64,000 nucleotides of DNA from Candidatus Velesiimonas alkalicola (GTDB lineage Bacteria > Omnitrophota > Gorgyraeia > Velesiimonadales > Velesiimonadaceae): assembly GCA_013626165.1 (NCBI GenBank), contig NDHX01000004.1, forward strand, positions 64,565 to 128,564, written 5' to 3'. A program made the translations under genes and the position numbers. Positions 1 to 49,007 of the stretch are shown piece after piece (position 1 is the first letter of the stretch; the number at the start of each line of letters is the position of its first letter). The notes beneath the pieces were generated by a model. The model did not search any database. It was not told the origin of the DNA and saw nothing but the letters and a program-made list of their open reading frames with translations.

Positions 1-1
1 A

Positions 2-901
2 GCGGTAAAGATACATTCTGAAACAGTTGTTATTGCAACAAGCGGAAGTTACGGTCTTACCGCAATATTAAGTGCCATACAGGAGGGCAAAAGGATTGCA
101 ATTGCAAACAAAGAACCCATTGTTATGGCTGGCTCTTTAATTATGGAAATGGCCAATAGATGTGGTTCACAGATAATACCGGTTGATTCGGAACACAGTG
201 CAATATTTCAGTGTCTTTCTGCAGGTAAAAAAACAGAGGTTCATAAGATATATCTTACAGGTTCTGGTGGAGCCTTAAGAGGGTATTCAAAAGATAGGAT
301 AGGTTCGGTAGATATTAAAAATGTATTATCACATCCAAAATGGAAAATGGGGAAAAAAATCACCGTTGATTCTGCAACCCTTATGAACAAAGGACTTGAG
401 GTTATTGAGGCAACGCATCTTTTTGATATACCTTCGGATAAAATAGAGGTTCTTATCCATCCGCAAGCTATTGTTCATTCATTTGTAGAGTTTATAGATG
501 GCTCTGTGGTTGCACAGTTGAGTGATACCGATATGAAGATTCCTATCCAGTATGCACTGACATATCCTTTAAGAGAAAAATCTTTTGCAAAATATCTTAA
601 TTTAATAAAGATTAAAAATCTTACATTTGAAAAACCTGATAAAAAACTTTTTCCCTGTCTTGCACTGGGATATAAGGCTGCAAAAATAGGAGGCACACTT
701 CCCTGTGTTATGAGTATTGCTAATGAGGTTGCGGTAGAAAAATTTCTTAAAAGGCAAATAAAATTTATTGATATACCAAAGATTATTTTTAATGTTATGA
801 AAAAACACAGGGTAAAAAAAGTAAAAAGTGTAGAGGATGTTATTGAAAGCGCAGAGTGGGCAAAAAGAGAAGCAAACTCCATCTCCTCTGGCAACTGGTG
901 A
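2..901 (+). CDS. dxr: 1-deoxy-D-xylulose 5-phosphate reductoisomerase, 5'-truncated at window edge
   Basis: Frame is open from base 2 (AVKIHSETVVIATSGSYGLTAILSAIQEG...LANKEPIVMAGSL) into listed ORF 125..901 (SEHSAIFQC, HPQAIVHSFVEFIDGS); typical Dxr central/C-terminal region; conserved dxr-rseP-ispG neighbourhood. Confidence 0.85.
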   Translation, partial: AVKIHSETVVIATSGSYGLTAILSAIQEGKRIAIANKEPIVMAGSLIMEMANRCGSQIIPVDSEHSAIFQCLSAGKKTEVHKIYLTGSGGALRGYSKDRIGSVDIKNVLSHPKWKMGKKITVDSATLMNKGLEVIEATHLFDIPSDKIEVLIHPQAIVHSFVEFIDGSVVAQLSDTDMKIPIQYALTYPLREKSFAKYLNLIKIKNLTFEKPDKKLFPCLALGYKAAKIGGTLPCVMSIANEVAVEKFLKRQIKFIDIPKIIFNVMKKHRVKKVKSVEDVIESAEWAKREANSISSGNW

Positions 902-904
902 CAG

Positions 905-995
905 CTGAAAGCCGTATATCGTATTCCGTATATCGTTAAAAAAACGAAATACAGGTGATAGGCGACGTAATACGGTATACGAAATACGAGTATTT
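905..995. repeat. CCGTAT/ATACGG short-repeat hairpin region (family also at 20956-21032 and 59500-59580)
   Basis: ccgtatatcgtattccgtatatcg ... cgtaatacggtatacgaaatacg. Confidence 0.5.
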
Positions 996-1042
996 GACAT
1001 TTTTTTATATTCTATGGTGCTCTGTCAAATAAATAAAGGTAT

Positions 1043-1123
1043 GATTACACAGATTAGTTTAGATTACACAGATAAAGATTGCTGTCGAAATCTGTGTAAT
1101 CGGATTTAAAAATCTGTGTAATC
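1043..1123. repeat. 80-bp palindromic 'GATTACACAGAT' element, copy 1 (2 direct + 2 inverted 12-mers)
   Basis: gattacacagat x2 then atctgtgtaatc x2; between dxr and rseP. Confidence 0.8.
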
Positions 1124-1167
1124 AATGCAATCCTTATTTTGTTTTCAATGCAGTATAGGAGAGAAAA

Positions 1168-2271
1168 ATGAATGCAGTATTGGACATATTTTTACACTAT
1201 GGCATAGCGGTTATTTTTATGCTCGGTATTCTTATTTTTATACATGAGTTGGGGCATTTTTGGACGGCAAGGCTGTTGAAGGTAAAGGTAGATGAGTTTT
1301 CAATAGGGTTTGGTAAAAGGCTCTTTGTGTATAAAAAAAATAATATTGAATATTCAATACGGCTTATACCGTACGGAGGGTTTGTAAAACTTGCAGGCGG
1401 TGAAACAAGAACTCAATCAGTGCCCAATTACAATGAGTTTCTTGCAAAGCCATTGTGGGTAAAAATTTTGATACTTGTTGCAGGCTCATCTATGAATATG
1501 GTTCTTGCAGTATTTTTGTTTTCAAACATTGCATTTTATACAGGCGTTCCTGATACAAGACCCATAGTAGGAGAAGCAATTGAGGGAAAACCCGCATCTA
1601 TCTCGGGTATAAAACAAAAGGATATTATAGTCCAGATAGATGAAAAAAATATTAAATCCTGGAATGATATGACATCTGTCATAAGAAATTCTAAAGGCGA
1701 AGAATTGAACTTAAAAATAGCAAGAGATGGCAGGGACATCTTCTTACAGGTTACACCTGTTCTTGATAAGGTTCCTGATATGTTTGGGAAGGAACAGGAG
1801 ATATTTTTTATAGGTATTGCGCCGCAGATACAACATTTTAATTTATTGGGAAGCTTAAAAGAAGGCACACGTCAGGCTTATTTCTGGAGCACACTTACAC
1901 TAAAAGGCTTATTCAGGATTATTACGGGTGAGGATAAAGTTTTCAAAGCAATAGGAGGGCCTCTTATGATTGCAGAGGTTACTGCAAGGGCATCAAGAGC
2001 CGGTTTTGCAGCATTCTTTTTTATTATGGCAATAATAAGTATTGCACTTGCAGTAATAAATATGTTTCCCATACCCGGTATTACAGACGGAGGTCATACC
2101 ATAGTGTATCTTTTTGAAAAGGCAATAAATCGCCCCTTAAGTCCGAGGGCATATGAAATTGTAACAAGGATAGGGTTTGCATTTATAATATTTTTAATGT
2201 TCATTGCAACAGCAGCAGATGTATGGAGATTCTGGGGGCAAAGGCTATTTGAATTTTTGATAAAAAAATGA
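1168..2271 (+). CDS. rseP: RIP metalloprotease RseP (site-2 protease, M50 family, single PDZ)
   Basis: HELGHFWTARLL zinc motif, multi-TM, PDZ-like middle, position between dxr and ispG. Confidence 0.85.
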   Translation: MNAVLDIFLHYGIAVIFMLGILIFIHELGHFWTARLLKVKVDEFSIGFGKRLFVYKKNNIEYSIRLIPYGGFVKLAGGETRTQSVPNYNEFLAKPLWVKILILVAGSSMNMVLAVFLFSNIAFYTGVPDTRPIVGEAIEGKPASISGIKQKDIIVQIDEKNIKSWNDMTSVIRNSKGEELNLKIARDGRDIFLQVTPVLDKVPDMFGKEQEIFFIGIAPQIQHFNLLGSLKEGTRQAYFWSTLTLKGLFRIITGEDKVFKAIGGPLMIAEVTARASRAGFAAFFFIMAIISIALAVINMFPIPGITDGGHTIVYLFEKAINRPLSPRAYEIVTRIGFAFIIFLMFIATAADVWRFWGQRLFEFLIKK

Positions 2272-3356
2272 GAAGGAAAACAAGGAAAATATTCTACGGG
2301 GATGTTGCAGTAGGAGGTAATTCTCCTGTAAGTATTCAGTCTATGACAAGGACCGAATTATCAGATGTTCCATCAACATTAAGACAGATTAAATTGCTTA
2401 AAAAAAAAGGTTGCGAAATAGTAAGGATTGCTGTCCCTGATATTGAATCTGTTTCTTATCTTAAAAAGGCTATACCCAAGAGCGTTCTTCCTATTGAGGC
2501 TGACATACATTTTAACTGGAATATTGCAATACTTTGTATACAGGCCGGTGTTCAGGGGATAAGACTAAATCCAGGAAACATATATAGAAAATCTCAAATT
2601 ATTGCAGTTGCAAAACAAGTGGCTGAAAAAAATATTCCAGTAAGAGTTGGACTTAATTCAGGTTCTCTTCCCGTCTGCGCAGGCACACTTTCGGGAAAGA
2701 TGGTAAGATCTGCACTAAACTACATAGATATCTTACAAAAGGCTGGTGTGTGTAATATCATTGTTTCACTTAAATGTTCAGATGTTCAGCAGACTGTTGC
2801 TTCATATAGAGAACTTGCAAAAAAAACAGATATTCCTTTCCATTTAGGAATAACCGCAACAGGTTTTGGAACAGAATCAATTGTAAAATCATCTATCGGT
2901 ATTGGCTCACTGCTTTTAGATGGAATAGGAGATACTATAAGAGTATCTTTTTCAGGAAATCCTGTTGAAGAGGTAAGCACAGGGAAGTATATATTACAGG
3001 CACTGAGAATAAGGAGATTTTTCCCGGAGGTTATTGCCTGTCCGACCTGTGGAAGATGTACAATAGATGTTCCAAGAATTGCAAAACAGGTTTATTCAAA
3101 ATTATCTAATATATCCAATAATTATCCCGGTATTTTAAGTCTCACAGTTGCAGTTATGGGATGTGTTGTGAACGGTCCTGGTGAAGCAAAAAATGCTGAT
3201 GTAGGCATAGCAGGGGGCAAAGGCAAAGGGCTTTTATTTGTGAAAGGAAAGCCTCTGTATAATGTGGAAGAAAAAAAATTGGCAGACACTCTTGTAAAAC
3301 AGGCTATTTCCCTGTCTTTACTTGCGACTGCCGCCCCAAATTGTCGGGACAAGTAA
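2268..3356 (+). CDS. ispG: 4-hydroxy-3-methylbut-2-enyl diphosphate synthase (IspG/GcpE)
   Basis: GcpE-like sequence incl. C-terminal CPTCGRC Fe-S cysteine motif; translationally coupled to rseP. Confidence 0.85.
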   Translation: MRRKTRKIFYGDVAVGGNSPVSIQSMTRTELSDVPSTLRQIKLLKKKGCEIVRIAVPDIESVSYLKKAIPKSVLPIEADIHFNWNIAILCIQAGVQGIRLNPGNIYRKSQIIAVAKQVAEKNIPVRVGLNSGSLPVCAGTLSGKMVRSALNYIDILQKAGVCNIIVSLKCSDVQQTVASYRELAKKTDIPFHLGITATGFGTESIVKSSIGIGSLLLDGIGDTIRVSFSGNPVEEVSTGKYILQALRIRRFFPEVIACPTCGRCTIDVPRIAKQVYSKLSNISNNYPGILSLTVAVMGCVVNGPGEAKNADVGIAGGKGKGLLFVKGKPLYNVEEKKLADTLVKQAISLSLLATAAPNCRDK

Positions 3357-3665
3357 AGTGCCCCCATTACCTTATGATAAGCGATTCGGATTGACACAGA
3401 TACGAGGGTTTGGTAGAATAGTGCCTGCCAATTAGGCGATAAAAAACTGGCGATAAGGCGACAAAAAAACATTTCAATATTCCGCAGACTGAGTTGGGTG
3501 AGTAAATGCTCAGTGAACACCGTTGTCATTGCGAGGGAACGAAAGGTGACCGAAGCAATCTCATGAGATTGCCACGTCGCTGTCGCTTCTCGCAATGACG
3601 GACTTAAGTGAATACTTACTCGGGTGATTTTTGAACTTTATAGAGGGAATGAAGGTAGGTAAGAT

Positions 3666-4637
3666 ATGAAAAAATTATTTATGTTTATTGTATTTGTACT
3701 CACACTTGCAGGTGTTTGCCATTCTTTCTGGATATGGACACCTGAAACAGGCAGGTTTATAAATCCTAAGTATGCTGTAAAAGATTCGCCAAAAGAGCAG
3801 TTTGAATGGGCTATGGAGCTTTATAAAGCAGGGGATTATAAAAGAGCACTATCAGAATTTAGGAAACTTTACAGGATTTATCCTGATTCAATGTATGCAA
3901 GCCAGTCTGGGCTTTATGAAGGAAAATCCCAGGAAGGTTTAGGTAATTACTGGCAGGCATTTAAGGCATACCAAAAAATGATAGAAAAATATCCATATAG
4001 TAAGTCTGTGCCGGTTGCAATAGAAAGGAGTTTCAAGATAGGTGAAATGTTTCTTGAAGGAAAAAAAATAAAAAGATTAGGATTAGAAATATTTCCGTCA
4101 GCAGATGAGACAATACAGATATTTGAAAAAGTAGTGAAAAATGCGCCATTTGGACCATATGGAGCAAAGGCACAGTTTAATTTAGGGGTTGCATATAGCA
4201 GGGCTAGAAGGTTTGCTGAAAGTGGAGAGGCCTTTCTTAAAGTTATTGACAATTATCCGGAGAGTCCACTTGCAGGCGAAGCAAGGATACAGATTGCAAA
4301 AAGTTCACAGATGGCTTCGTTAAGGCCAAAGTATGACCAGACATCAACCAAAAAAGCGATACGAGAGTTCGAAGAGATTTTAAAATTAGGCTCTCAACCG
4401 GAGATCGTGGAAAAGGCTCAACAATCTCTTACTGCATTAAAAGAAAAAAAGGCTGAAAGTCTTTATTTAATTGCACAATTTTATGAAAAGAGACGCTCTG
4501 TTAATGGTGCAAAAATATACTATAAGCAGATACTAAAAAATTATGCTGATACAAACATTGCAGAAAAAGCAAAACAAAGAATGACAGAAATATTCCTTTC
4601 GGGAAAATCCCTGGGGGAAACAGGCTGGGAACAATGA
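3666..4637 (+). CDS. TPR-repeat outer-membrane assembly lipoprotein, BamD/YfiO-like
   Basis: N-terminal signal peptide, TPR-like repeats (YKAGDYKRALSEF..., AQFNLGVAY), precedes LptE-like lipoprotein. Confidence 0.5.
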   Translation: MKKLFMFIVFVLTLAGVCHSFWIWTPETGRFINPKYAVKDSPKEQFEWAMELYKAGDYKRALSEFRKLYRIYPDSMYASQSGLYEGKSQEGLGNYWQAFKAYQKMIEKYPYSKSVPVAIERSFKIGEMFLEGKKIKRLGLEIFPSADETIQIFEKVVKNAPFGPYGAKAQFNLGVAYSRARRFAESGEAFLKVIDNYPESPLAGEARIQIAKSSQMASLRPKYDQTSTKKAIREFEEILKLGSQPEIVEKAQQSLTALKEKKAESLYLIAQFYEKRRSVNGAKIYYKQILKNYADTNIAEKAKQRMTEIFLSGKSLGETGWEQ

Positions 4638-5149
4638 AAAGGTTTTTATTTATATTTGTTTTATTTATCTATGGGTGTGGATATACCACAAGGCCAGGGG
4701 TTGCCCCTGATTTCAAAACCATATACATAGAACCATTTACAAACAGTATAGATATTACATCTGAAAGAACCAACATAAGACACCACAGAACATCCATTGC
4801 AGGTATTGAGGTGCTTGTTACAAAAAACATTGAAGATGTTTTAAAAAGAGATGGAAGGCTGAGGCTTGTAAAAAAAGATCAGGCTGATGTTATAATGACC
4901 GGATCTGTTCTTTCGTTTAACAGAGAGGCCCTCAGATACAATCCAGATGGAACCATAAGAGAATCAAGAATACATATCACAACACAGGTTGCTATTAGAA
5001 CAAAATTAGGTGAAACACTGTGGACTGAAAATATAAGCAACCGATTAGGAAGTACCTTTGCAGGTGCTACAACAGACATTTCTGCGCTGAATAGTGCGAT
5101 ACAAGACCTTTCAATAAAAATAAGAAACCGCCTGCTTGAAGATTGGTAA
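4634..5149 (+). CDS. LPS-assembly lipoprotein LptE-like
   Basis: 171 aa, signal peptide with lipobox-like IYGCGY followed by TTRPG and IYIEPFTN pattern typical of LptE N-terminus. Confidence 0.5.
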   Translation: MKRFLFIFVLFIYGCGYTTRPGVAPDFKTIYIEPFTNSIDITSERTNIRHHRTSIAGIEVLVTKNIEDVLKRDGRLRLVKKDQADVIMTGSVLSFNREALRYNPDGTIRESRIHITTQVAIRTKLGETLWTENISNRLGSTFAGATTDISALNSAIQDLSIKIRNRLLEDW

Positions 5150-5158
5150 TTTAATTTT

Positions 5159-5237
5159 CGGGGCGTGGCTCAGCTTGGTTTAGAGCATCTGCTTTGGGAG
5201 CAGAGGGTCGGCCGTTCGAATCGGCCCGCCCCGACCA
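5159..5237 (+). tRNA. tRNA-Pro (anticodon TGG), CCA encoded
   Basis: cggggcgtggctcagcttgg...; anticodon loop tTTGGGa between stem tctgc/gcaga; T-arm ggtcggccgttcgaatcggcc; acceptor cggggcg/cgccccg. Confidence 0.85.
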
Positions 5238-5256
5238 GCAACGGACAAAGCTCGTC

Positions 5257-5333
<77 letters not shown>

Positions 5334-5375
5334 GAAAACAACAGTTCTGCTTTGCGGTAGGCAGAAACAAAAAAT

Positions 5376-5453
5376 GGTGGGTGTAGCTCAGTTGGATAGA
5401 GCACTGGACTGTGGCTCCTGTTGTCGCGGGTTCAAATCCCGTCACCCACCCCA
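5376..5453 (+). tRNA. tRNA-His (anticodon GTG) with genomically encoded G-1 and CCA
   Basis: Extra 5' G (ggtgggtg...) pairing with discriminator C, the His-specific hallmark; anticodon loop ctGTGgc; one mismatch in anticodon stem. Confidence 0.75.
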
Positions 5454-5464
5454 TTAAAAAGAAG

Positions 5465-5836
5465 ATGGCCAACCCTCTCAAACCTATAAAAGGAAGACCG
5501 ATGGATAGAAAGTCTGCAAGATTCAGTACCAGGCTACCCATACAGTATTATGTAAAAGGGGTGGTCTTGGATATTGGTTTTAAGGATGCGGTCACAACAG
5601 ATTTAAGTTCAACAGGGCTTTCTTTTGAAAACAACAAGCCTATCAGAGAAGGTTCTATTATTGAGATAAAAATTTTTATGCCCGGTTATAAAAAACCCAT
5701 ACAGGTAACAGGAAAAGTCATAAGGACCGATAGATATACCAATATGTTTGTTGTGGCGGTAGCTTTTGAAAAAATAAACCCTGTTGACAAGGAGAAGATA
5801 AATTTCTGGTACTATAAAGATACACTTAAATTATGA
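5465..5836 (+). CDS. PilZ-domain (c-di-GMP binding) protein
   Basis: RKSAR (RxxxR) and DLSSTGLSF (DxSxxG) PilZ motifs; the listed ORF start 5411 lies inside tRNA-His, so ATG at 5465 is preferred. Confidence 0.7.
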   Translation: MANPLKPIKGRPMDRKSARFSTRLPIQYYVKGVVLDIGFKDAVTTDLSSTGLSFENNKPIREGSIIEIKIFMPGYKKPIQVTGKVIRTDRYTNMFVVAVAFEKINPVDKEKINFWYYKDTLKL

Positions 5837-7203
5837 AAAAATATGATATTACAATAATCGGTGCCGGCCCTGGAGGATATATTGCAGCAATAAGAGCGAC
5901 ACAGCTTGGGGGGAGGGTTTGTGTTATAGAAAAAGAGCATTTAGGTGGAACCTGTCTTAACAGAGGATGTATCCCAACAAAAGCACTATTAAAAAGTGCA
6001 GAGTTATTTTATTACATACAGAATGCGGGCTCGTTGGGTATAAAGGTGCAGAATATAACCCCTGATGTCCCTTTAATATTTGAAAGAAAAGAAAAAATTA
6101 TCCAGCAATTAAGAAAAGGGATAGAATCTCTTTTAAAAGCAAAAAAGATAGATGTGATAAAAGGTGTGGGTAAGGTTGTATCTGCCTCACAGGTGCTTGT
6201 GAACGAAGAAGAAAAAATATCTTCTAAGTTTATAATTCTTGCAACGGGTTCCGAATCTTTGGCTTGCCCCGGCATTGAGACAGACGGTAAAAATATACTT
6301 ACAAGCACAGATATTTTAAATACCGCTTCAATACCAAAATCCCTTGTTATTATAGGAGGCGGTGTAATAGGTTGCGAGATGGCTTGCTTTTATTCACAGA
6401 TGGGATCAAAGGTTCATATGATTGAGATGACAGACAGGGCGCTTCCTACGGAGGATATTGAGGTATCAAAAACATTTCTTACTTTTTTGAAAAAAAGAAC
6501 TGTAGAGGTACATCTAAGTACAAAAGTGATTTCCGCCTCCGTTAAAAATAAAGATGAAACAATCGTTAATCTTGAAGGTGGGGACATAATAGCAGAAAAG
6601 GTTCTCGTATGCATAGGGAGAAGGCCCAATTCTGAAAATATAGGTATTGAAGAGATGGGAATTAAAACAGAAAAATCAGGACCGGTAGTTGATGAGTATA
6701 TGAGAACAAATGTTTCAACAATATTTGCAATAGGAGACCTTGCGGGGAAAAGGTATCTTGCTCATACCGCATCGATGGAAGGGATTGTTGCTGTTGAAAA
6801 TGCAGTGGGTAAGGATGGAAGGATGGATTATAGCGTTGTGCCTAACTGCATATTTACATTCCCTGAAATTTCAAGTGTAGGACTTACAGAAGAGCAGGCG
6901 ACTTCTTCGGGTATAGATGCAGAATCTTCAAAGTTTCCGTTTCAGGCACTCGGCAGAGCGGTTGCTTCTTCACAGACACAGGGTTTTGTTAAAATTGTAT
7001 TTGATAAAAAAACCAGAGAGGTTCTCGGTTGTCAGATTATAGGCCCTTGTGCAACAGAACTTATTGCCGAGGTCTCACTTGCAATCCGGATGCAGGCAAC
7101 TGTGAAAGATATTGCAAATACAATCCATGCCCATCCAACATTCTCAGAGGCAATTCAGGAAGCAGCATATGCAAGCCTTGAAGGCGCGCTACACCTGCCG
7201 TAA
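5833..7203 (+). CDS. lpdA: dihydrolipoyl dehydrogenase
   Basis: GAGPGGY FAD motif, redox-active CLNRGCIPTK disulfide, C-terminal HAHPTFSE interface motif. Confidence 0.9.
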   Translation: MKKYDITIIGAGPGGYIAAIRATQLGGRVCVIEKEHLGGTCLNRGCIPTKALLKSAELFYYIQNAGSLGIKVQNITPDVPLIFERKEKIIQQLRKGIESLLKAKKIDVIKGVGKVVSASQVLVNEEEKISSKFIILATGSESLACPGIETDGKNILTSTDILNTASIPKSLVIIGGGVIGCEMACFYSQMGSKVHMIEMTDRALPTEDIEVSKTFLTFLKKRTVEVHLSTKVISASVKNKDETIVNLEGGDIIAEKVLVCIGRRPNSENIGIEEMGIKTEKSGPVVDEYMRTNVSTIFAIGDLAGKRYLAHTASMEGIVAVENAVGKDGRMDYSVVPNCIFTFPEISSVGLTEEQATSSGIDAESSKFPFQALGRAVASSQTQGFVKIVFDKKTREVLGCQIIGPCATELIAEVSLAIRMQATVKDIANTIHAHPTFSEAIQEAAYASLEGALHLP

Positions 7204-42384: not shown

Positions 42385-42506
42385 CAATAAAAGAAGTGCA
42401 AAATAAAACGAGAAAATAAAACTATTGAAGAAAGTTATGTCATTGTCGTACAAGTAGATTTCCGCACGGAGTTATTTAGGGTCTGCTGAAAAACTCATCA
42501 GACCCT

Positions 42507-42588
42507 GATTCCACAGATTAAAAAGCAGATTACACAGATTAAAACCCGATGACAAAATCGGTGTAATCTTTCAAAAATCTGTGTAATC
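42507..42588. repeat. 'GATTACACAGAT' element, copy 2
   Basis: Shares ...gtgtaatctttcaaaaatctgtgtaatca with copy 3; downstream of uvrB. Confidence 0.8.
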
Positions 42589-43120
42589 AGGGCTTACTGA
42601 AAAATTTACATCTGTCAAAAGTGCAAGGTTTTTACATAAAAAGAACAAAAAATCGTGCACTTTTAGCGCTATTTTTGTGGTTTAAATCGCTTAATTTCCG
42701 TCGTAGTATCCAAATTTTTAGCATTTTTCAGTAAGCCCTATTTATTAAGTTAGAAAAGAAACAATGCTTATTGTGGCGGTAATGTATCTTGACAGAAATT
42801 TTCAGTTACCATTGGCGGCAAATGTCAGATGGCAGCAGGTGAGATCTTACGCTCCTTTATCTTTTGGAGCTATAGCTATTTCCAAAAGAAGTTAGATGCG
42901 GATGAAGTATTTAGGTTAGCTATGCCAAAGAACAAACAGCTTAGGTTAAACTATGCTGTTACAGGGTAAAAAGACTAAATTTGCCAAAGTTTAGCTGTAC
43001 ATTAAGTTCGTATAATATGCAACAAAAGGTCGATATTATACATTCAATTCGTATAGAAACGAGTTATATGAAATTGCTTTTAATTTGAGAATTATAAAAT
43101 AAAATTGGAGGAATGGAAAA

Positions 43121-43315
43121 ATGGACGTGAAAGAATTAATCGCCAAGGAGATAGAAAATGTTCCTGAGCCCTATCTCATGGAGATACTGGATTTTATCCG
43201 ATTTTTAGAGACTAAGGCTTTGGAACAAAAGATGGAACTTGCATTAGCAAGTGAAGCGTCTCTTAAAAAAGATTGGCTGAAGCCTGAGGAGGATGAAGCA
43301 TGGAAAGATTTGTAA
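43121..43315 (+). CDS. DUF2281-like antitoxin
   Basis: 64 aa, EILDFIRFLETK motif, overlaps downstream toxin gene by 16 nt. Confidence 0.6.
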   Translation: MDVKELIAKEIENVPEPYLMEILDFIRFLETKALEQKMELALASEASLKKDWLKPEEDEAWKDL

Positions 43316-43632
43316 AAGGGGATGTAGTAGTCGTTCCTTTCCCTTTCTCAGATTTAACCCGAGCTAAAAGACGACCGGCTTTGGTAATCGCAGAGTTAGA
43401 AGGTAATGATCTGATTCTTTGCCAGATAACCAGTCAGTCTATTAGAGACAGATACGCAGTTTTAATTGACAAGAATGATTTTGAAACCGGGACGCTTAGG
43501 CGAAAAAGTAATGTGCGACCTAACCGCATATTCACAGCAGATCGTCACATCATCCTGTATCGAGTTGGTCATCTTAAACCTAAAAAGATCGATCAGATAA
43601 TTGAGAGGATAGTATCTATCCTTCGGCAATAA
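43300..43632 (+). CDS. MazF/PemK-family type II toxin endoribonuclease
   Basis: GDVVVVPFPFSDLTRAKRRPALVI PemK/MazF signature. Confidence 0.75.
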   Translation: MERFVKGDVVVVPFPFSDLTRAKRRPALVIAELEGNDLILCQITSQSIRDRYAVLIDKNDFETGTLRRKSNVRPNRIFTADRHIILYRVGHLKPKKIDQIIERIVSILRQ

Positions 43633-43645
43633 ATATGCAACTTCC

Positions 43646-43740
43646 GATAACAGAGCGTATCTGGCTTCGGCTTACGCCTCCGCCCAAATCCCCCTTCGGA
43701 GAACTTCAGATACGCTCGAAACGTTATATGAAATGGCGGT
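43646..43740 (+). repeat. attC-like palindrome 1 (ATAACA-GAGCGTATCTG...CAGATACGCTC-GAAAC-GTTATAT, plus right arm ATGAAATGGCGGT)
   Basis: Begins 14 bp after the toxin stop; inner 11-bp inverted boxes; unequal spacers (1 nt vs 5 nt) next to the AAC/GTT ends. Confidence 0.55.
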
Positions 43741-43746
43741 TCCAAA

Positions 43747-44904
43747 ATGAATGAAGAAAGGAAAACCATGAAAACAAATAATACCCGACAATTAACATTA
43801 GAAAGTTTAGAGGCTATTCCGCTTACTTATGGTTCAATTATTCTAAATAAAGAGATGTTTATTCAAGTTTTGGTTGAGACTAAAACTCTACAGGATTTAA
43901 TTTCTCTTAAGAACAAACTAATTGTATTAAAAGATATTATAACTAATCATAAAAAGGACCAAGAAGGCATATTAAATATTGACGCTAATGGAGATACGGT
44001 CTCCTTACGCAGAGATGTTCTAACTTCTGAATTAAATCAAATCCTTGAGTCGCAAACAGTTGAAAGAGCTAAGTACTATTTAAAAAGATTGGAAAATGGA
44101 GTCCAAAAAGTTAAGACAAGTAAAATCAACGACATAAATCTTTTAAGGTGGAAAGAATATGATGATATTATTACCGATAGCCTTTGGGTATTAGATAAGA
44201 GGGATACTTCAGGTGTCCATCTTGGTTGGTATTGGGGAAATTTCATCCCACAGATTCCGCATCAGACCCTGATAAGATATACCAAAAAAGGAGATTGGGT
44301 TTTAGATGCATTTGTGGGAAGTGGAACGACCTTGATTGAGTGCCGAAGATTGGGTAGAAACGGAATAGGAATAGAATTAAACCAAGAAGTGGCACGAGAA
44401 GCAAAGAAATTGATTGAAAAGGAACAAAATAAAGATAATGTAGTTAGTGAAGTAATAATTGGGGACAGTAGGACGATGAATATAGAAGAAATTTTGACAA
44501 AGCACAAAATTAATCAAGTTCAACTTCTTATTATGCATCCTCCGTACCATAATATTATTAAGTTTTCAAAAGATGAAAAAGACCTTTCGAACGCAAAAAA
44601 TACTGAAGAATTTTTGAAAATGTTTGGGGAGGTGATAAATAATGCAACTCCATACTTAGAAAAAGAGCGGTACTTTGCTTTAGTTATTGGCGATAAGTAT
44701 TCTAAAGGTGAATGGATACCTTTAGGATTTTATTGTATGAATGAAGTATTAAAAAGAGGCTATTTATTAAAAAGTATAATTGTTAAAAACTTTGAAGAAA
44801 CGCGAGGCAAGAGAAATCAACAAGAACTTTGGAGATATAGGGCGTTAGTAGGTGGATTTTATATTTTTAAGCATGAATATATAATGTTATTTAAGAAAAA
44901 ATAG
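43747..44904 (+). CDS. DNA methyltransferase (N6-adenine/N4-cytosine type)
   Basis: FIPQIPHQT (motif X-like), VLDAFVGSGTT (motif I), IMHPPY (motif IV) about 65 aa apart; better RBS before ATG 43768. Confidence 0.75.
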   Translation: MNEERKTMKTNNTRQLTLESLEAIPLTYGSIILNKEMFIQVLVETKTLQDLISLKNKLIVLKDIITNHKKDQEGILNIDANGDTVSLRRDVLTSELNQILESQTVERAKYYLKRLENGVQKVKTSKINDINLLRWKEYDDIITDSLWVLDKRDTSGVHLGWYWGNFIPQIPHQTLIRYTKKGDWVLDAFVGSGTTLIECRRLGRNGIGIELNQEVAREAKKLIEKEQNKDNVVSEVIIGDSRTMNIEEILTKHKINQVQLLIMHPPYHNIIKFSKDEKDLSNAKNTEEFLKMFGEVINNATPYLEKERYFALVIGDKYSKGEWIPLGFYCMNEVLKRGYLLKSIIVKNFEETRGKRNQQELWRYRALVGGFYIFKHEYIMLFKKK

Positions 44905-44915
44905 GAGATAAAACT

Positions 44916-45749
44916 ATGCCATTATTAAGTCAAAAAGAAGTCTTAAATTTAAAACTCAGTTGTATTCCTTTACCGCAGTTAAAACTACCTGCTCTAAACT
45001 TAGGAATAAACAATACAGGTTCAGCAACAGAGATTATTAAAAGAGTTTTGGATAAAGGGGTAGACGAAAAAGTAATACAGAGATTCATAAAACAAAAATA
45101 TAATGAAAGAATCCAGGAACGGAGGGAGGTTATTTCTGATGAGGACTTAAAAAAAGAATTGTTAAAAGTCCAAACCTTTTCTTGGGGCGTGGTTCAAGGG
45201 CAGTTAGATCAGAAAATACAGGCTGAATATGTGAGAAGAATTGTAAGATATGAAGACCTGCTAAATAATGTCAGGGCGAAACTTCACGAAGATGTGACTA
45301 AATATGTAATTTGTACTTGGTTTAATCATTGGACAACTGTGTTAATAGAAGAACATATAAGCACTCACAAGAGGGTGATCCCCACTATTAAAAATATAAA
45401 AGGAATTGATATTTTCTTTGATGGACAGCCATTTGACTTAAAAGTGACCTACCTTCCTCGTGAATATAATCCCTCTGATGCTATAAAAAATCCTACTGAT
45501 TTAGCTGTCTGGCTATATGAAAATCAGGGTGCTCAAAGATTTGGGGCTGACAATCGGTTATTTGTTGTATTGTTGGATAAAGATAACACTGAAAGAAGTT
45601 GGGAATTAAAAAGAGATTTTACTTTAGTATTCCAAAAGATTGATAATTTCTTTGATAGAGAGACGGTGTCAAAGAAAGACGAGATTGTTTTCACTTTTGG
45701 CAGAAAAACATATACAGCAGTTACAAAGGTTTTGATAATAACAAAATGA
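44916..45749 (+). CDS. putative restriction endonuclease partner (PD-(D/E)xK-like)
   Basis: Immediately downstream of the MTase (12-bp gap, RBS ggag); candidate catalytic pattern EEH...GIDIFFDGQPFDLK (D-x9-DLK). Confidence 0.45.
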   Translation: MPLLSQKEVLNLKLSCIPLPQLKLPALNLGINNTGSATEIIKRVLDKGVDEKVIQRFIKQKYNERIQERREVISDEDLKKELLKVQTFSWGVVQGQLDQKIQAEYVRRIVRYEDLLNNVRAKLHEDVTKYVICTWFNHWTTVLIEEHISTHKRVIPTIKNIKGIDIFFDGQPFDLKVTYLPREYNPSDAIKNPTDLAVWLYENQGAQRFGADNRLFVVLLDKDNTERSWELKRDFTLVFQKIDNFFDRETVSKKDEIVFTFGRKTYTAVTKVLIITK

Positions 45750-45750
45750 G

Positions 45751-45869
45751 ACCGCCACTTCATATAACACAGCATAAAAGGTTCGTGCCTTCGGCACTCA
45801 CCCAAATCCTTCGCTATCGCTCAGGACTTCTTTTATGCTGGAAACGTTATATGAAATTCGGCTTGGCGG
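45751..45869 (+). repeat. attC-like palindrome 2 (arms ACCGCCACTTCAT / ATGAAATTCGGCTTGGCGG; ATAACA-CAGCATAAAAG...CTTTTATGCTG-GAAAC-GTTATAT)
   Basis: Same ends and central ttcgtgccttcggcac...cccaaat segment as sites 1 and 3, with a different but perfectly complementary inner 11-bp box pair. Confidence 0.55.
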
Positions 45870-45914
45870 ACGGATAACAAAATTAATGAAAACAAAAACA
45901 TATAGGTGGATGTG

Positions 45915-47327
45915 ATGAAAACGCTTTACGAGGCAAAACAAGAAACTTTGTTTGGGGAAAGGACCATCGAGCAAAAATACTTAGAATTAATCAATAACGA
46001 GCATAACATCTCTAAAGGAGTTGAAGTTTTAGATAAAATTGATTGGGACTTTAAAGATTTTACGACTCAGTATCTTACACATACGTTTCATTCTTACCCC
46101 GCAAGGTTTATACCTCAAATACCTCTGACTTTCATCAAATTATTTACAAAAGAGAAAGAAACTGTCTTAGACCCAATGTGCGGTTGTGGAACAACATTGG
46201 TAGAGGCTTTTTTAAATAATCGAAATTCTATTGGGAATGACTTTAACCCACTTGCAACCCTAATAACCAAAGTAAAAACCACTCTAATTGATGAAAACGA
46301 GTTCAGATATTTTAATAAAAAATTGGCAGTTATGAAGCGATATTTAGATTTGGATTATAGAAGAGTTGATGAAAGAATTAATAATCTGCCTAACAGAAAG
46401 GTAAGCAAGATATTCAACAGGGTTGTAATCTCAAAATTAGAAAGCATCCGTGAAACTCTATTAGAGGTAAAAGAAGAAGGACATAATGACTTATTTGATT
46501 TTGGAAGAGTTGCTTTATCATCAACAATATGGTCATTGGTAGAAAATGGTAATGGAATTGATGTTGATGATGTGTTTCTGAAAAAAGTAAAATCTATGCA
46601 GAATGACCTAAATAGGATGGCTAAGATTATTAGGACTGTTCCGGTTGTAAGAGTAATTTGTGGCGATGCAAGAAAATTAGAGGTTGAAACAGCCTCAATA
46701 AACTTAATAGTAACTTCTCCTCCTTATGTAAATGCGTTGGATTATTATAGAGCCCATATGTATAACATGCTTTGGCTTGGAATGGATTTTGACTTGTTTA
46801 GAAAACATGAGATCGGTGGGCATTCCCATTTCATTATCAATAGATTTAGACTACTTTCAGAATATTTAGGTGATATGCTCCGTTCAATGATAGAGATGAA
46901 TAGAGTTTTGAAAAAAGATAAAACATGCGTAATTGTAGTAGGGAACTCCAGTTTGGAGTATGAACTGATTGAAAGTCATAATTTTTTTGCAGAAATGGGT
47001 GAAAAGATAGGATTTAAGCCAATAAAAACAATTTTTAGGAATATTGATAAAACAAGGAAATACACAAGTGCAGATATAGGGAAAATTGATGATGAATATA
47101 TCCTTGTAATGCAAAAGGTAGATGATACCAATATTTCTGCAGATGATGATAATTTTGTTTCCGATGTTGTGCAAGAGCAGATGTTAGGATTTAAAGAGCA
47201 AATAAAGAAATGTCAAGGCACTTCCATTAGGAGTAGAAAACCAACAAATGAGAGACTATTGAAGAATGTTGATAAGATTAGTGAGGCAATAGAAACGATA
47301 TCTGAAGACACAAAAATAAAGAGGTAA
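45915..47327 (+). CDS. DNA methyltransferase (N6-adenine/N4-cytosine type), paralog of 43747
   Basis: HSYPARFIPQIP (motif X-like), VLDPMCGCGTT (motif I), IVTSPPY (motif IV) about 170 aa apart; RBS aggtgga before ATG 45915. Confidence 0.75.
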   Translation: MKTLYEAKQETLFGERTIEQKYLELINNEHNISKGVEVLDKIDWDFKDFTTQYLTHTFHSYPARFIPQIPLTFIKLFTKEKETVLDPMCGCGTTLVEAFLNNRNSIGNDFNPLATLITKVKTTLIDENEFRYFNKKLAVMKRYLDLDYRRVDERINNLPNRKVSKIFNRVVISKLESIRETLLEVKEEGHNDLFDFGRVALSSTIWSLVENGNGIDVDDVFLKKVKSMQNDLNRMAKIIRTVPVVRVICGDARKLEVETASINLIVTSPPYVNALDYYRAHMYNMLWLGMDFDLFRKHEIGGHSHFIINRFRLLSEYLGDMLRSMIEMNRVLKKDKTCVIVVGNSSLEYELIESHNFFAEMGEKIGFKPIKTIFRNIDKTRKYTSADIGKIDDEYILVMQKVDDTNISADDDNFVSDVVQEQMLGFKEQIKKCQGTSIRSRKPTNERLLKNVDKISEAIETISEDTKIKR

Positions 47328-47332
47328 GAAAC

Positions 47333-48307
47333 ATGAAAGAATTTATTAGCAAAATAATATACTCAATTCTCACAGGGCAAGATTATAGGGCCTATGTTCT
47401 TGCTACAATAAATAAAAGATTCATTGATAAAGCGCAAGAACTGATTTCCGAAGTGTTTGAGCACAAACGAAGAGGTGATAATTGGCTTGAAAAACTTTTA
47501 GAAGACACTTTCAAAAAGAAGGGGAAAGAGAACAAATTTAAACTTCTGTGGTTTGGCGGTTTAAATGATAAGACTGTAAAGAATATGACAGGCGGGACAT
47601 CTACAAAGGAAGTATGTTTGGATTTAGGTAGGAAGAACATAGAAGCATTGAAAATATTGCTAAAAGAATTTGATAGTAGTGAGAACTTATATCAACTCAG
47701 AATAATAATCCGGAAAGGTAAAGAACAAGTTGAATTAGACGAAGTTGAAAGTATATTTTTCGTTAATATTATCTCAGCAATGAAACTAACAATTCAAGGA
47801 GGAGCTTGGAGTGAAGTGGGAAAGAAAACCGAAAAAGGTTTACTCTTTGTGATATTTCGATTACTGAAAATTCCAGAAGATAACTATATTTTAACAACTG
47901 CGGAAATGAAGAAAAAAGGACTGGTTGAGAACAGAGAAATCGATGCCATAGTTTTCAGTAAGAACAAAGAGCCTCTAACTATTGAGTTAAAACTACTTGG
48001 AATCGGAAATCCCGAAATAGGTGACGAGGCACTTGCCAGAAAAGTAAGTTTATTTCTGATAGATAGGTTGACAGAGATGATGAAGGAAGAATCTGAAAAA
48101 ATAGGAATTAAAGTAATTGAATTTAGACAAGAAAATTCTCTAATGGAGATGTACAAGTTTTTCAAATCGAAAAATGTGAGTTGTAGTCCGCCCGAAAAAA
48201 TGACACCAAACGAATTAGAAGACGAAATAAATGGAATAATGAAAGAGTGGAGAGAAGAATCAGAAGATTTAGCTGTAATTAAAAAATTAAGGGAGTGGAC
48301 AAAATGA
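47333..48307 (+). CDS. putative restriction endonuclease partner (PD-(D/E)xK-like)
   Basis: 5 bp after the MTase stop; candidate motif EIDAIVFSKNKEPLTIELK (D-x13-ELK). Confidence 0.45.
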   Translation: MKEFISKIIYSILTGQDYRAYVLATINKRFIDKAQELISEVFEHKRRGDNWLEKLLEDTFKKKGKENKFKLLWFGGLNDKTVKNMTGGTSTKEVCLDLGRKNIEALKILLKEFDSSENLYQLRIIIRKGKEQVELDEVESIFFVNIISAMKLTIQGGAWSEVGKKTEKGLLFVIFRLLKIPEDNYILTTAEMKKKGLVENREIDAIVFSKNKEPLTIELKLLGIGNPEIGDEALARKVSLFLIDRLTEMMKEESEKIGIKVIEFRQENSLMEMYKFFKSKNVSCSPPEKMTPNELEDEINGIMKEWREESEDLAVIKKLREWTK

Positions 48308-48309
48308 TT

Positions 48310-48459
48310 ACCGCCAAGCCGAATCTTGCGGAAACCTTCGGTTTCCTTGCCTCGCCTTCGGCTCGGTCATATAACAGAGCGTATCTGGCTTCGTGCCTTC
48401 GGCACTCTGCCCAAATTGCTCGCTTCGCTCGCAACTTCAGATACGCTCAACCGTTATAC
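48310..48459 (+). repeat. attC-like palindrome 3 (left arm ACCGCCAAGCCGAAT, 45-bp insert, ATAACA-GAGCGTATCTG...CAGATACGCTC-AACC-GTTATAC)
   Basis: Core boxes identical to site 1; no conserved right arm beyond GTTATAC, consistent with being the last site of the array. Confidence 0.55.
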
Positions 48460-48829
48460 GCAATAATTTTTAAAAGTTAAAGAAACGACCCAAAAATTTT
48501 TTGTGAGATTTTTTAGGCAAACGGGCAAAAATTCCTGGTGGGGATGACACTCAAACCCCCTTCCTTTTTGCCCGCCTGCTTTCCGCCGAAGGCGGAATGG
48601 GGTGGAAAAGCGTTTCCGCAATTCCTGCGTCAGCAGGAAGGCAAAACAGAAAAATTTTCTTTTCCTTATTTGAAAAATAGTGGCGAGTGATTAAAAAACC
48701 TATTCCCTTGCAAAAATAACAGTCAAAAAAGGACCAACAGCAAGAATGTACTTATCAAACCTTTTAAGAGAAACAAAAAAACAACAAACAGAAAAATATC
48801 CAGAATAGAACTAATAATTCTCCCTTCCC

Positions 48830-49007
48830 GCCGTGCAGGGATAACGCGTGTATCGTTCAAAACCAGAATGCCCTCGTTCTGAAAATAATCCTCTATATTA
48901 CTGAAAATGTCTTCTTCTGCTATCTTCTTTTTTTTGTCAGGCACTATCAAACAGGCTTTTTCTTTCTCCTTGAGGGGTATTGGGCTATCAACTCCTTCGG
49001 CAGGCAA
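48830..49007 (-). pseudogene. queA: queA N-terminal fragment (S-adenosylmethionine:tRNA ribosyltransferase-isomerase remnant, ~60 aa)
   Basis: SPIPLKEKEKACLIV...NEGILVLNDTRVIPARREG matches the QueA N-terminal region (LVFNNTRVIPARLFG in E. coli); similarity ends abruptly, the rest of the ORF is low-complexity, and no remainder of queA is in the window. Confidence 0.6.

Follow-up and report, generated by a model that had tools for sequence, protein, structure and literature searches.

The window analyzed here is a stretch of 64,000 nucleotides (nt) from contig NDHX01000004.1 of Candidatus Velesiimonas alkalicola, and all coordinates refer to it. At positions 45915-48307, two long open reading frames (ORFs) follow each other on the + strand. 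The locus raises the question of what these ORFs encode, and how the unit carrying them is related to the adjacent cassette, which also contains a methyltransferase gene. In the initial annotation, they were taken for a methyltransferase/nuclease pair in a cassette array, diversified within this array from a common ancestor with the adjacent pair. Our analysis indicates that the unit, hereafter cassette 3, is very probably an intact, orthodox Type II restriction-modification (R-M) system packaged as one integron-type cassette of about 2.6 kb in an integrase-less array. Both ORFs were confirmed and both are intact. The methyltransferase is called M3 and the nuclease R3. The features of the unit are as follows (attC2 and attC3 are the attC-like sites described below).

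45847-48453, + strand: cassette 3 unit, about 2.6 kb, from the TT of the attC2 R' box to the G of the attC3 R' box, carrying M3 and R3
45904-45909, + strand: AGGTGG, Shine-Dalgarno sequence of M3, spaced 5 nt from the start codon (ATG, 45915)
45915-47327, + strand: M3, DNA methyltransferase of 470 amino acid residues, read from the ATG
47319-47325, + strand: AAGAGGT, Shine-Dalgarno sequence of R3, overlapping the last codons and the stop codon of M3
47333-48307, + strand: R3, CfrBI-family Type II restriction endonuclease (PF09516) of 324 residues

The two genes are on the same strand and are separated by 5 nt. The length of 473 residues originally given for M3 is correct for an alternative GTG start at 45906; the start at 45915, given together with it, is an ATG and yields 470 residues. 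Since the spacing of AGGTGG favors the ATG, the 470-residue form is preferred. This is also the length annotated by NCBI for a 100 %-identical protein (P0121) of 'bacterium Unc6' (locus B9J78_02860). Residue numbers of M3 refer to the 473-residue form unless stated otherwise.

R3 Is a Member of the CfrBI Family

R3 matched PF09516 (RE_CfrBI) over the complete profile (positions 1-257 of 257) with 361.3 bits against a gathering cut-off of 25 (E = 3.3e-108). It also matched the PADLOC model REase_II (E = 2.8e-43), and several homologues with 76-83 % identity to R3 bear the NCBI name 'CfrBI family restriction endonuclease'. Thus, the earlier statement that this protein has no obvious family is not tenable.

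When 1.84 billion cluster representatives were searched exhaustively, 176 relatives of R3 were found. Conservation was analyzed in an alignment of 63 diverse relatives, the identities of which to R3 ranged from 19 to 81 %. R3 possesses the motif D204-x13-E218-L-K220. D204 was conserved in all 63 relatives, position 218 was E in 58 and D in the other 5, and K220 was present in 54. E167 was found in 59/63, and R19 and a GxGNPE motif C-terminal to the ExK were likewise conserved. Because of this conservation, the D-x13-ELK stretch, previously proposed as a candidate PD-(D/E)xK motif, can be assigned as the catalytic motif of PF09516. As judged from the alignment, D204, E218 and K220 are the catalytic residues of R3, and E167 is probably a further one.

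An AlphaFold2 model of R3 was built on the 63-sequence alignment (mean predicted local distance difference test (pLDDT) 91.7; predicted template modelling (pTM) score 0.86). D204 is placed just ahead of the strand 205-208, E218 and K220 are within the strand 214-220, and E167 is within the long preceding helix. When the model was compared with the Protein Data Bank (PDB) by Foldseek, BsoBI (probability 0.99, template modelling score 0.45-0.46), Card1, AvaII and EcoO109I occupied the top ranks, all of them below the threshold. These matches fit a PD-(D/E)xK fold class for the modelled R3 and do not establish a family link. No structure of a CfrBI-family enzyme turned up in the searched copy of the PDB, by sequence or by fold.

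In a tblastn search of R3 against 72,556 plasmids, which was aimed at recovering CfrBI of plasmid pZE8, no match was obtained. Thus, R3 is not a close relative of the plasmid-borne enterobacterial copies.

M3 Is an Alpha-Type Methyltransferase

M3 matched PF01555 (N6_N4_Mtase) with 77.8 bits against a cut-off of 26.7 (E = 1.5e-21), in two pieces whose order is permuted compared with the beta-order profile. Profile positions 1-126, the motif IV half, aligned to residues 265-430 of M3, and the S-adenosylmethionine (AdoMet)-binding end of the profile aligned to the N-terminal block from FIPQIP to GxGTT. The PADLOC model MTase_II was matched at E = 1e-43. Together with the PF09516 match of R3, the PF01555 match bears out the proposal of a methyltransferase/nuclease pair; both matches lie far above chance level.

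In M3, FIPQIP is located at residue 68, motif I (DPMCGCGTT) at 89-97 and SPPY, which fits the motif IV pattern (D/N/S)PP(Y/F), at 271-274; motif I and SPPY are invariant in the family alignment. The distance from motif I to SPPY is about 178 residues, which agrees with the alpha-like spacing of about 170 residues first described. The order is X/I at residues 68-97, insert, IV, and the inserted target-recognition region is assigned to residues about 115-250. In the class names that reportedly go back to Malone, Blumenthal and Cheng in 1995, this order is the alpha architecture. By its motif order, M3 is alpha-type. Several M3 homologues are named cytosine-N4-specific by the Joint Genome Institute (JGI). 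From the SPPY motif, these names and the N4-methylcytosine (m4C) chemistry of M.CfrBI, M3 is probably an N4-cytosine methyltransferase.

The C-terminal part of M3 differs from what was initially described. An extension of about 200 residues had been proposed, and a target-recognition domain had been considered for it. However, residues 265-430 are the catalytic half of PF01555. Since distant homologues (24-30 % identity) stop at about residue 404-409, only about 65-70 residues are truly extra. The acidic/basic tail, from about residue 403 onwards, is conserved among close family members; a relative with 40 % identity has a shorter version, and more distant homologues have none. The tail gave no Pfam or PDB match. 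The ratio of nonsynonymous to synonymous substitution rates (dN/dS) in three orthologue pairs was 0.13-0.20 for the tail versus 0.06-0.11 for the core, and thus the tail is also under purifying selection. In this architecture, the target-recognition domain is found between motifs I and IV, and the tail was therefore rejected as a candidate for it.

The FIPQIP segment had been called unusual. It is a subgroup version of the conserved segment before motif I, and its counterpart in 2zie, a methylase of solved structure, is HPAPFPLELA. The identical FIPQIP is also present in a Rhizobium plasmid methyltransferase with 29 % identity.

The Pair Is Intact and Conserved in Other Genomes

Outside the window, the M3-R3 pair was found in a Nitrososphaeria archaeon, in Ignavibacteria/Lentimicrobium-like bacteria, in Atribacteria, in WOR-3 and in Calescibacterium (contigs with homologous genes are given L numbers where they have to be told apart). 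The archaeal copies are on contigs of 775-796 kb that are labelled Nitrososphaeria archaeon by NCBI. The nucleotide identity of cassette 3 to the copies in other phyla was 79-87 %. The order M then R with a gap of 5-6 nt recurs in L001, L004 and L006 (Nitrososphaeria archaeon, Ignavibacteria-like bacterium), and in L007 (Atribacteria) the two ORFs are 1 nt apart. Linkage of M and R was kept in 5/5 other contexts examined, so that the M-then-R synteny is conserved. In three orthologue pairs, dN/dS was about 0.1 for R3 and 0.06-0.20 overall for both genes, showing that both M3 and R3 are under strong purifying selection.

Two of these contexts look like defence islands. In L007 (positions 1-6000), the cassette with M3 and R3 is in a different attC array, beside cassettes for a 431-residue ATPase-like protein and a 303-residue coiled-coil protein. 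In L004 (6634-10975), M3-R3 is directly upstream of a gene for a 1569-residue NB-ARC protein.

The CfrBI prototype recognizes CCWWGG. In the window, 15 CCWWGG sites were observed, against 28.8 expected from base composition and 20.6 from a Markov model, and there is none in cassette 3. Avoidance of CCWWGG was rejected as a test of specificity, since the shortfall is too small and general avoidance of CTAG and of palindromes confounds it. Most family representatives share only about 20-30 % identity with R3, and CCWWGG cannot be assigned to R3 from family membership.

Other hexamers are also scarce in the window. ACTAGT, CCTAGG, GCTAGC, CTCGAG, GTCGAC and CGATCG have 0 copies, GAATTC has 3 copies versus 13.6-21 expected, and CTGCAG has 7 versus 19 in the Markov model. 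This scarcity suggests general avoidance of CTAG and CG, and possibly other R-M pressures.

The CfrBI family does not always have an M3-type partner. At L013 519-2860, the partner of a distant CfrBI-family nuclease (30 % identity to R3) is a 457-residue methyltransferase, in which N-terminal HEAT repeats are fused with an N6_N4 domain of beta order, its SPPY preceding motif I. A 45 %-identical relative of R3 pairs with an M3-type enzyme. Thus, the CfrBI nuclease family partners with methyltransferases of different permutation classes.

Several of these results weigh against the assignment of an orthodox, working system. They are the low identity of R3 to most of its family, the L013 pairing, the weak depletion of CCWWGG, and the absence of structural matches: no PDB entry reached E<=0.001 in the Foldseek comparison with the R3 model, and searches of the PDB with the single R3 sequence and with the 63-sequence profile gave nothing meaningful, the sole match being a de novo helical protein. 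In addition, the promoter and terminator scan gave nothing above chance, and no promoter signal was found upstream of M3.

The weak avoidance of CCWWGG in the window and the undetected promoter might be explained if the system had decayed or been domesticated, that is, if M3 were an orphan or regulatory methyltransferase beside an inactive R3, or the reverse. However, both ORFs have the full length of their family modes (324 residues for R3, 468-473 for M3), all catalytic residues are present, dN/dS is about 0.1 in both genes, and M and R have stayed linked in all five independent contexts. We consider decay or domestication very unlikely, and an intact R-M pair remains the preferred reading.

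AttC-Like Sites Delimit the Cassettes

The placement of the locus in a cassette array was correct: three attC-like hairpins delimit the cassettes. They are homologous imperfect palindromes of 85-91 nt, a length inside the range of about 55-140 nt for attC sites, and lie in the same orientation 3' of the genes for MazF, for partner 2 (the protein encoded after the methyltransferase M2 in cassette 2) and for R3.

43063: orphan R' box GTTATATGAAATTGC, opening the toxin-antitoxin cassette
43645-43729, + strand: attC1, closing the toxin-antitoxin cassette (repeat families D4 and D9)
45762-45852, + strand: attC2, closing cassette 2; its R' box GTTATAT (45846-45852) starts cassette 3
45856-45869: ATTCGGCTTGGCGG at the 5' end of cassette 3, pairing with CCGCCAAGCCGAAT
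48311-48324, + strand: CCGCCAAGCCGAAT, directly after the stop codon of R3, reverse complement of ATTCGGCTTGGCGG
48369-48459, + strand: attC3, closing cassette 3; its elements follow the shared plan given below, with GTTATAC as R' box

In the shared plan of the element, R'' (ATATAAC) is followed by L'' (GAGCGTATCTG), and after the variable loop come L' (CAGATACGCTC), the spacer and R' (GTTATAT). The R and L stems are parted by an asymmetric unpaired spacer (4-5 nt versus 0-1 nt). The R boxes are ATATAAC/GTTATAT, with GTTATAC in attC3. In attC2, the L box is fully compensatory relative to attC1 and attC3 (CAGCATAAAAG/CTTTTATGCTG), and thus the R box is conserved in sequence and the L box in structure. 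For attC1, attC2 and attC3, the predicted folding energies of the bottom strand were -17.1, -23.7 and -21.5 kcal/mol, respectively, versus -15.0, -18.8 and -17.4 kcal/mol for the top strand. The z scores of the bottom-strand folds were -7.5 for attC2 and -3.9 for attC3.

A covariance model was built from the three window sites, and attC3 scored 113 bits. In the 64-kb window, only the same three sites were detected. Elsewhere, the model detected four sites flanking M3-R3 in L007, two sites 3' of R3 in L008 (WOR-3), and one site directly 3' of R3 in each of L004-L006. The R' box of L004 is GTTAGGG. In ten sites, the UAAC/GUUA core pairs were invariant or nearly so, and 89 % of the alignment cells paired, versus about 40 % in slid controls. 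In the L stem, 9/12 pairs showed double compensatory changes and 93 % of the cells paired. The observed values were not reached in any of 500 shuffles.

The boundaries of homology lie at or near these sites, or at the stop codon of R3. In blastn alignments with L004-L006, the window sequence is homologous from 45841 onwards, and the R' box follows 5 nt later, at 45846. The first 26 nt of cassette 3 (45845-45870) are 100 % identical in L007. At the other end, homology to L007 extends to 48464, the end of attC3, and homology to the other phyla ends at the end of attC3 or at the stop codon of R3. Furthermore, in each cassette the 3' end is complementary to the first bases that follow G|TTATAT. 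In cassette 3, this is the CCGCCAAGCCGAAT/ATTCGGCTTGGCGG pair, which is conserved in L004, and in cassette 2 it is the inverted repeat I8 (18 nt, 94 %). Such complementarity of the ends would be expected if a cassette went through a circular form with G|TT crossover.

Between the R3-proximal complementary segment and the R'' box of attC3, an insert of about 45 nt was observed (48324-48367). It is GC-rich, contains small hairpins with CTTCGG loops, and is conserved in the L007 (Atribacteria) and L004 (Ignavibacteria-like) copies.

A set of observations argues against integron-type cassettes. No integron integrase or tyrosine recombinase was found among 20 window ORFs (248-569 residues, including the neighbours of the array), which were all housekeeping genes. 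The R boxes agree with the consensus RYYYAAC ... GTTRRRY at only 6/7 positions. The predicted L stems are paired throughout, with no extrahelical bases evident, and asymmetry is confined to the spacer. No attC-like sites were detected around the L001 (archaeal) and L010 (WOR-3) copies of M3-R3; a search with the model gave no matches near the archaeal copy, near two further R-M copies or near the cassette-2 homologues. Finally, the alignment used for covariation was fitted to the model, and the pairing values above are biased towards structure.

These observations would suit an ordinary defence island, in which the R-M pair is real and the hairpins are a repetitive extragenic palindromic (REP) sequence, an element like a miniature inverted-repeat transposable element (MITE), or a terminator. 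However, the three sites share one orientation and are all at the 3' ends of ORFs, their R boxes are conserved in sequence and their L boxes in structure through compensatory changes, the spacer is asymmetric, and the bottom strand is the more stable. The element is also not dispersed, having only three sites in 64 kb, and the homology breakpoints lie at the R' box or a few nt from it. The complementary cassette ends and the occurrence of cassette 3 within a different array of four sites in L007 also speak against it. We therefore regard an ordinary island with hairpins of another kind as unlikely. At the level of sequence, the covariation and the homology breaks at the boundaries support the reading of the three gene sets as integron-type cassettes delimited by attC-like sites; we infer that they were moved by an integrase.

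The 64-kb window yielded no integrase, attI site or Pc promoter. Thus, the array is CALIN-like (a cluster of attC sites lacking an integrase), or the integrase is outside the window.

Cassettes 2 and 3 Were Probably Acquired Independently

Cassette 2 contains the following two genes.

43747-44904: M2, methyltransferase
44916-45749: partner 2, 277 residues

The motifs of M2 are FIPQIP at residue 166, DAFVGSGTT at 187 and HPPY at 264, with a gap of about 77 residues. As first reported, FIPQIP is common to M2 and M3 (residues 166 and 68, respectively). The FxGxGTT motif, which was also reported for both, is present in M2, whereas M3 has M in place of F. The two enzymes share a 51-residue block with 45 % identity (E = 2e-10) and a weak match at motif IV (E = 7e-4); nothing else aligns. 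No similarity was detected between R3 and partner 2 (best E = 5).

M2 has an uncommon variant of motif IV, HPPY, and the order N-terminal domain, X/I, then IV. It matched the PADLOC Type II methyltransferase model PDLC03351 at E = 2e-145.

Partner 2 matched no family in Pfam, NCBIfam, PADLOC or PHROG. More than 1000 homologues were found. Among the best-scoring 120, identities were 78-100 %, the names assigned by the sources were all 'hypothetical' or 'uncharacterized', and the taxon-named members come from several bacterial phyla. Partner 2 is always directly 3' of an M2-type methyltransferase. Its candidate catalytic residues are E145, D165 and D174-L-K176. Structure prediction, which had been suggested for both partners, gave a confident PD-(D/E)xK model for R3 and only a mediocre to moderate AlphaFold2 model for partner 2 (pLDDT 72.7), for which neither a fold search nor a sequence search of the PDB gave a significant match. 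The fold hints are an N-terminal SAP-like motif and scattered PD-(D/E)xK nucleases. Our guess is that partner 2 might represent an uncatalogued Type II endonuclease family.

The view that cassettes 2 and 3 are paralogous modules, diversified from a common ancestor within the array by re-spacing of motifs and divergence of the partners, was based on real likenesses. Both methyltransferases have the identical FIPQIP and GxGTT and are 45 % identical over 51 residues, both pairs have M before the partner with a short gap, and the cassettes are adjacent with homologous attC sites. However, beyond the AdoMet-binding block only the weak motif IV match is found, and the identical FIPQIP also occurs in the distant Rhizobium enzyme. 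The partners are unrelated: R3 belongs to PF09516 and partner 2 to no family. Moreover, each pair has its own 78-100 %-identical orthologues on separate contigs and in separate neighbourhoods: M2-partner 2 is found in WOR-3 and Ignavibacteriae without M3-R3, and M3-R3 is found elsewhere without M2-partner 2. These data already favor separation, and the claim of paralogous diversification has to be abandoned as highly improbable. Because of the unrelated partners, the methyltransferase overlap of only 51 residues and the separate orthologues of each pair, two independent acquisitions are the simplest reading of the sequences.

Surroundings of the Array

The array (43063-48459) consists of three cassettes, namely toxin-antitoxin, R-M and R-M, and cassette 3 is the last. 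The first cassette encodes a DUF2281 antitoxin and a PemK/MazF toxin. The array is flanked by uvrB upstream and by a gene for a PMT-type glycosyltransferase (glycosyltransferase operon) downstream. An Rfam scan of 42-49.5 kb gave no matches.

Between uvrB and the first cassette, there is a non-coding stretch of 680 nt (42385-43062) with no ORF of at least 60 residues and no Rfam match. It holds nested inverted repeats (42503-42519/42576-42592, 94 %; 42584-42605/42723-42744, 91 %) and repeated GGGYYTRCTGAAAAA units. This stretch could contain the promoter of the array or its attI site; a MITE and a small RNA are other candidates. The cumulative GC skew has its maximum at about 48000-49000. Genes are on the + strand up to 48.3 kb and on the - strand at 49.0-59.5 kb, and the array is exactly at this switch of orientation.

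Proposed Function and Significance

From the comparisons above, we infer enzymatic activity of both proteins, m4C chemistry, a recognition sequence and translational coupling of M3 and R3. M3 would use S-adenosylmethionine to methylate a short palindrome on host DNA, most likely at N4 of cytosine. R3, a Mg2+-dependent PD-(D/E)xK endonuclease that is probably homodimeric, would cleave this sequence in its unmethylated state and thereby restrict incoming phage or plasmid DNA. Cassette 3 encodes no controller (C) protein. Given the order M then R, the 5-nt gap and the Shine-Dalgarno sequence of R3 inside M3, the methyltransferase would be made first or together with the nuclease.

A broader reading is that a single integron-type cassette circulates across very distant lineages (contigs labelled Unc6, Atribacteria, WOR-3, Calescibacterium, Ignavibacteria-like and Nitrososphaeria), that its attC sites form a previously undescribed class with extended end complementarity, and that the R3 clade perhaps recognizes a sequence other than CCWWGG. 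A different recognition sequence may be considered because the partner in this clade is alpha-type and bears the tail, whereas it is beta-order in the distant member. We put this combined reading forward as tentative and somewhat doubtful.

As an R-M system, M3-R3 is a routine annotation of the CfrBI family, and current understanding is not challenged. The most notable aspect is the mobile integron-type cassette, which is also present in several other bacterial phyla. It is a clean and checkable case of a complete two-gene defence system that forms one cassette in uncultured candidate phyla and is reused across arrays. With no structure found for the CfrBI family, the R3 model and residues E167, D204, E218 and K220 offer direct targets for mutagenesis. 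The R3 clade is also a possible source of a thermostable Type IIP enzyme or one with novel specificity.

Comparison with Known Systems

BsoBI (PDB 1dc1) is the best solved restriction-enzyme match to the R3 model (330 columns). In both, the N-terminal half is largely helical and precedes a PD-(D/E)xK core. The cut geometry of BsoBI, C^YCGRG, resembles C^CWWGG; BsoBI and related PD-(D/E)xK Type IIP enzymes leave 4-nt 5' overhangs. In contrast, BsoBI is only 14 % identical to R3 in sequence, and the Foldseek E value of 0.018 is not significant.

The alpha-type PF01555 methyltransferase of Halorubrum lacusprofundi pHLAC01, encoded beside an MvaI/BcnI-family endonuclease, has the same motif order as M3. 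Over residues about 36-409, methyltransferases of this type have 24-30 % identity to M3. They differ from M3 in lacking the tail of about 65 residues and in having a nuclease of a different family as partner.

CfrBI of Citrobacter freundii, encoded on plasmid pZE8, is an isoschizomer of StyI that cuts C^CWWGG, and m4C on the outer cytosine protects the site (PMC6556831). R3 is in the same Pfam family, PF09516, over the full profile, and both are two-gene Type II systems; SPPY of M3 and the JGI names of its homologues fit an N4-cytosine methyltransferase such as M.CfrBI. M.CfrBI is about 42 kDa and R.CfrBI about 40 kDa (PMC6556831), whereas M3 has 470 residues (an estimated 55 kDa or so) and R3 has 324. 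The CfrBI genes are described as divergent and as regulated by methylation of a CfrBI site in their shared promoter. M3 and R3 are instead in tandem, M then R, 5 nt apart, with no CCWWGG.

R-M systems in integron cassettes are already known, for example XbaI, and among restriction systems it is Types II and IV that are more prevalent in integrons (PMC10661359; bioRxiv 10.1101/2024.07.02.601686). From the known integron defence cassettes, including the XbaI R-M cassette and the 'defence biobanks' of sedentary chromosomal integrons, cassette 3 differs in that its array is CALIN-like, its hosts are uncultured candidate phyla, and its sites have no obvious extrahelical bases. It resembles them in being a compact two-gene system with attC-like bounds and a toxin-antitoxin cassette adjacent to it.

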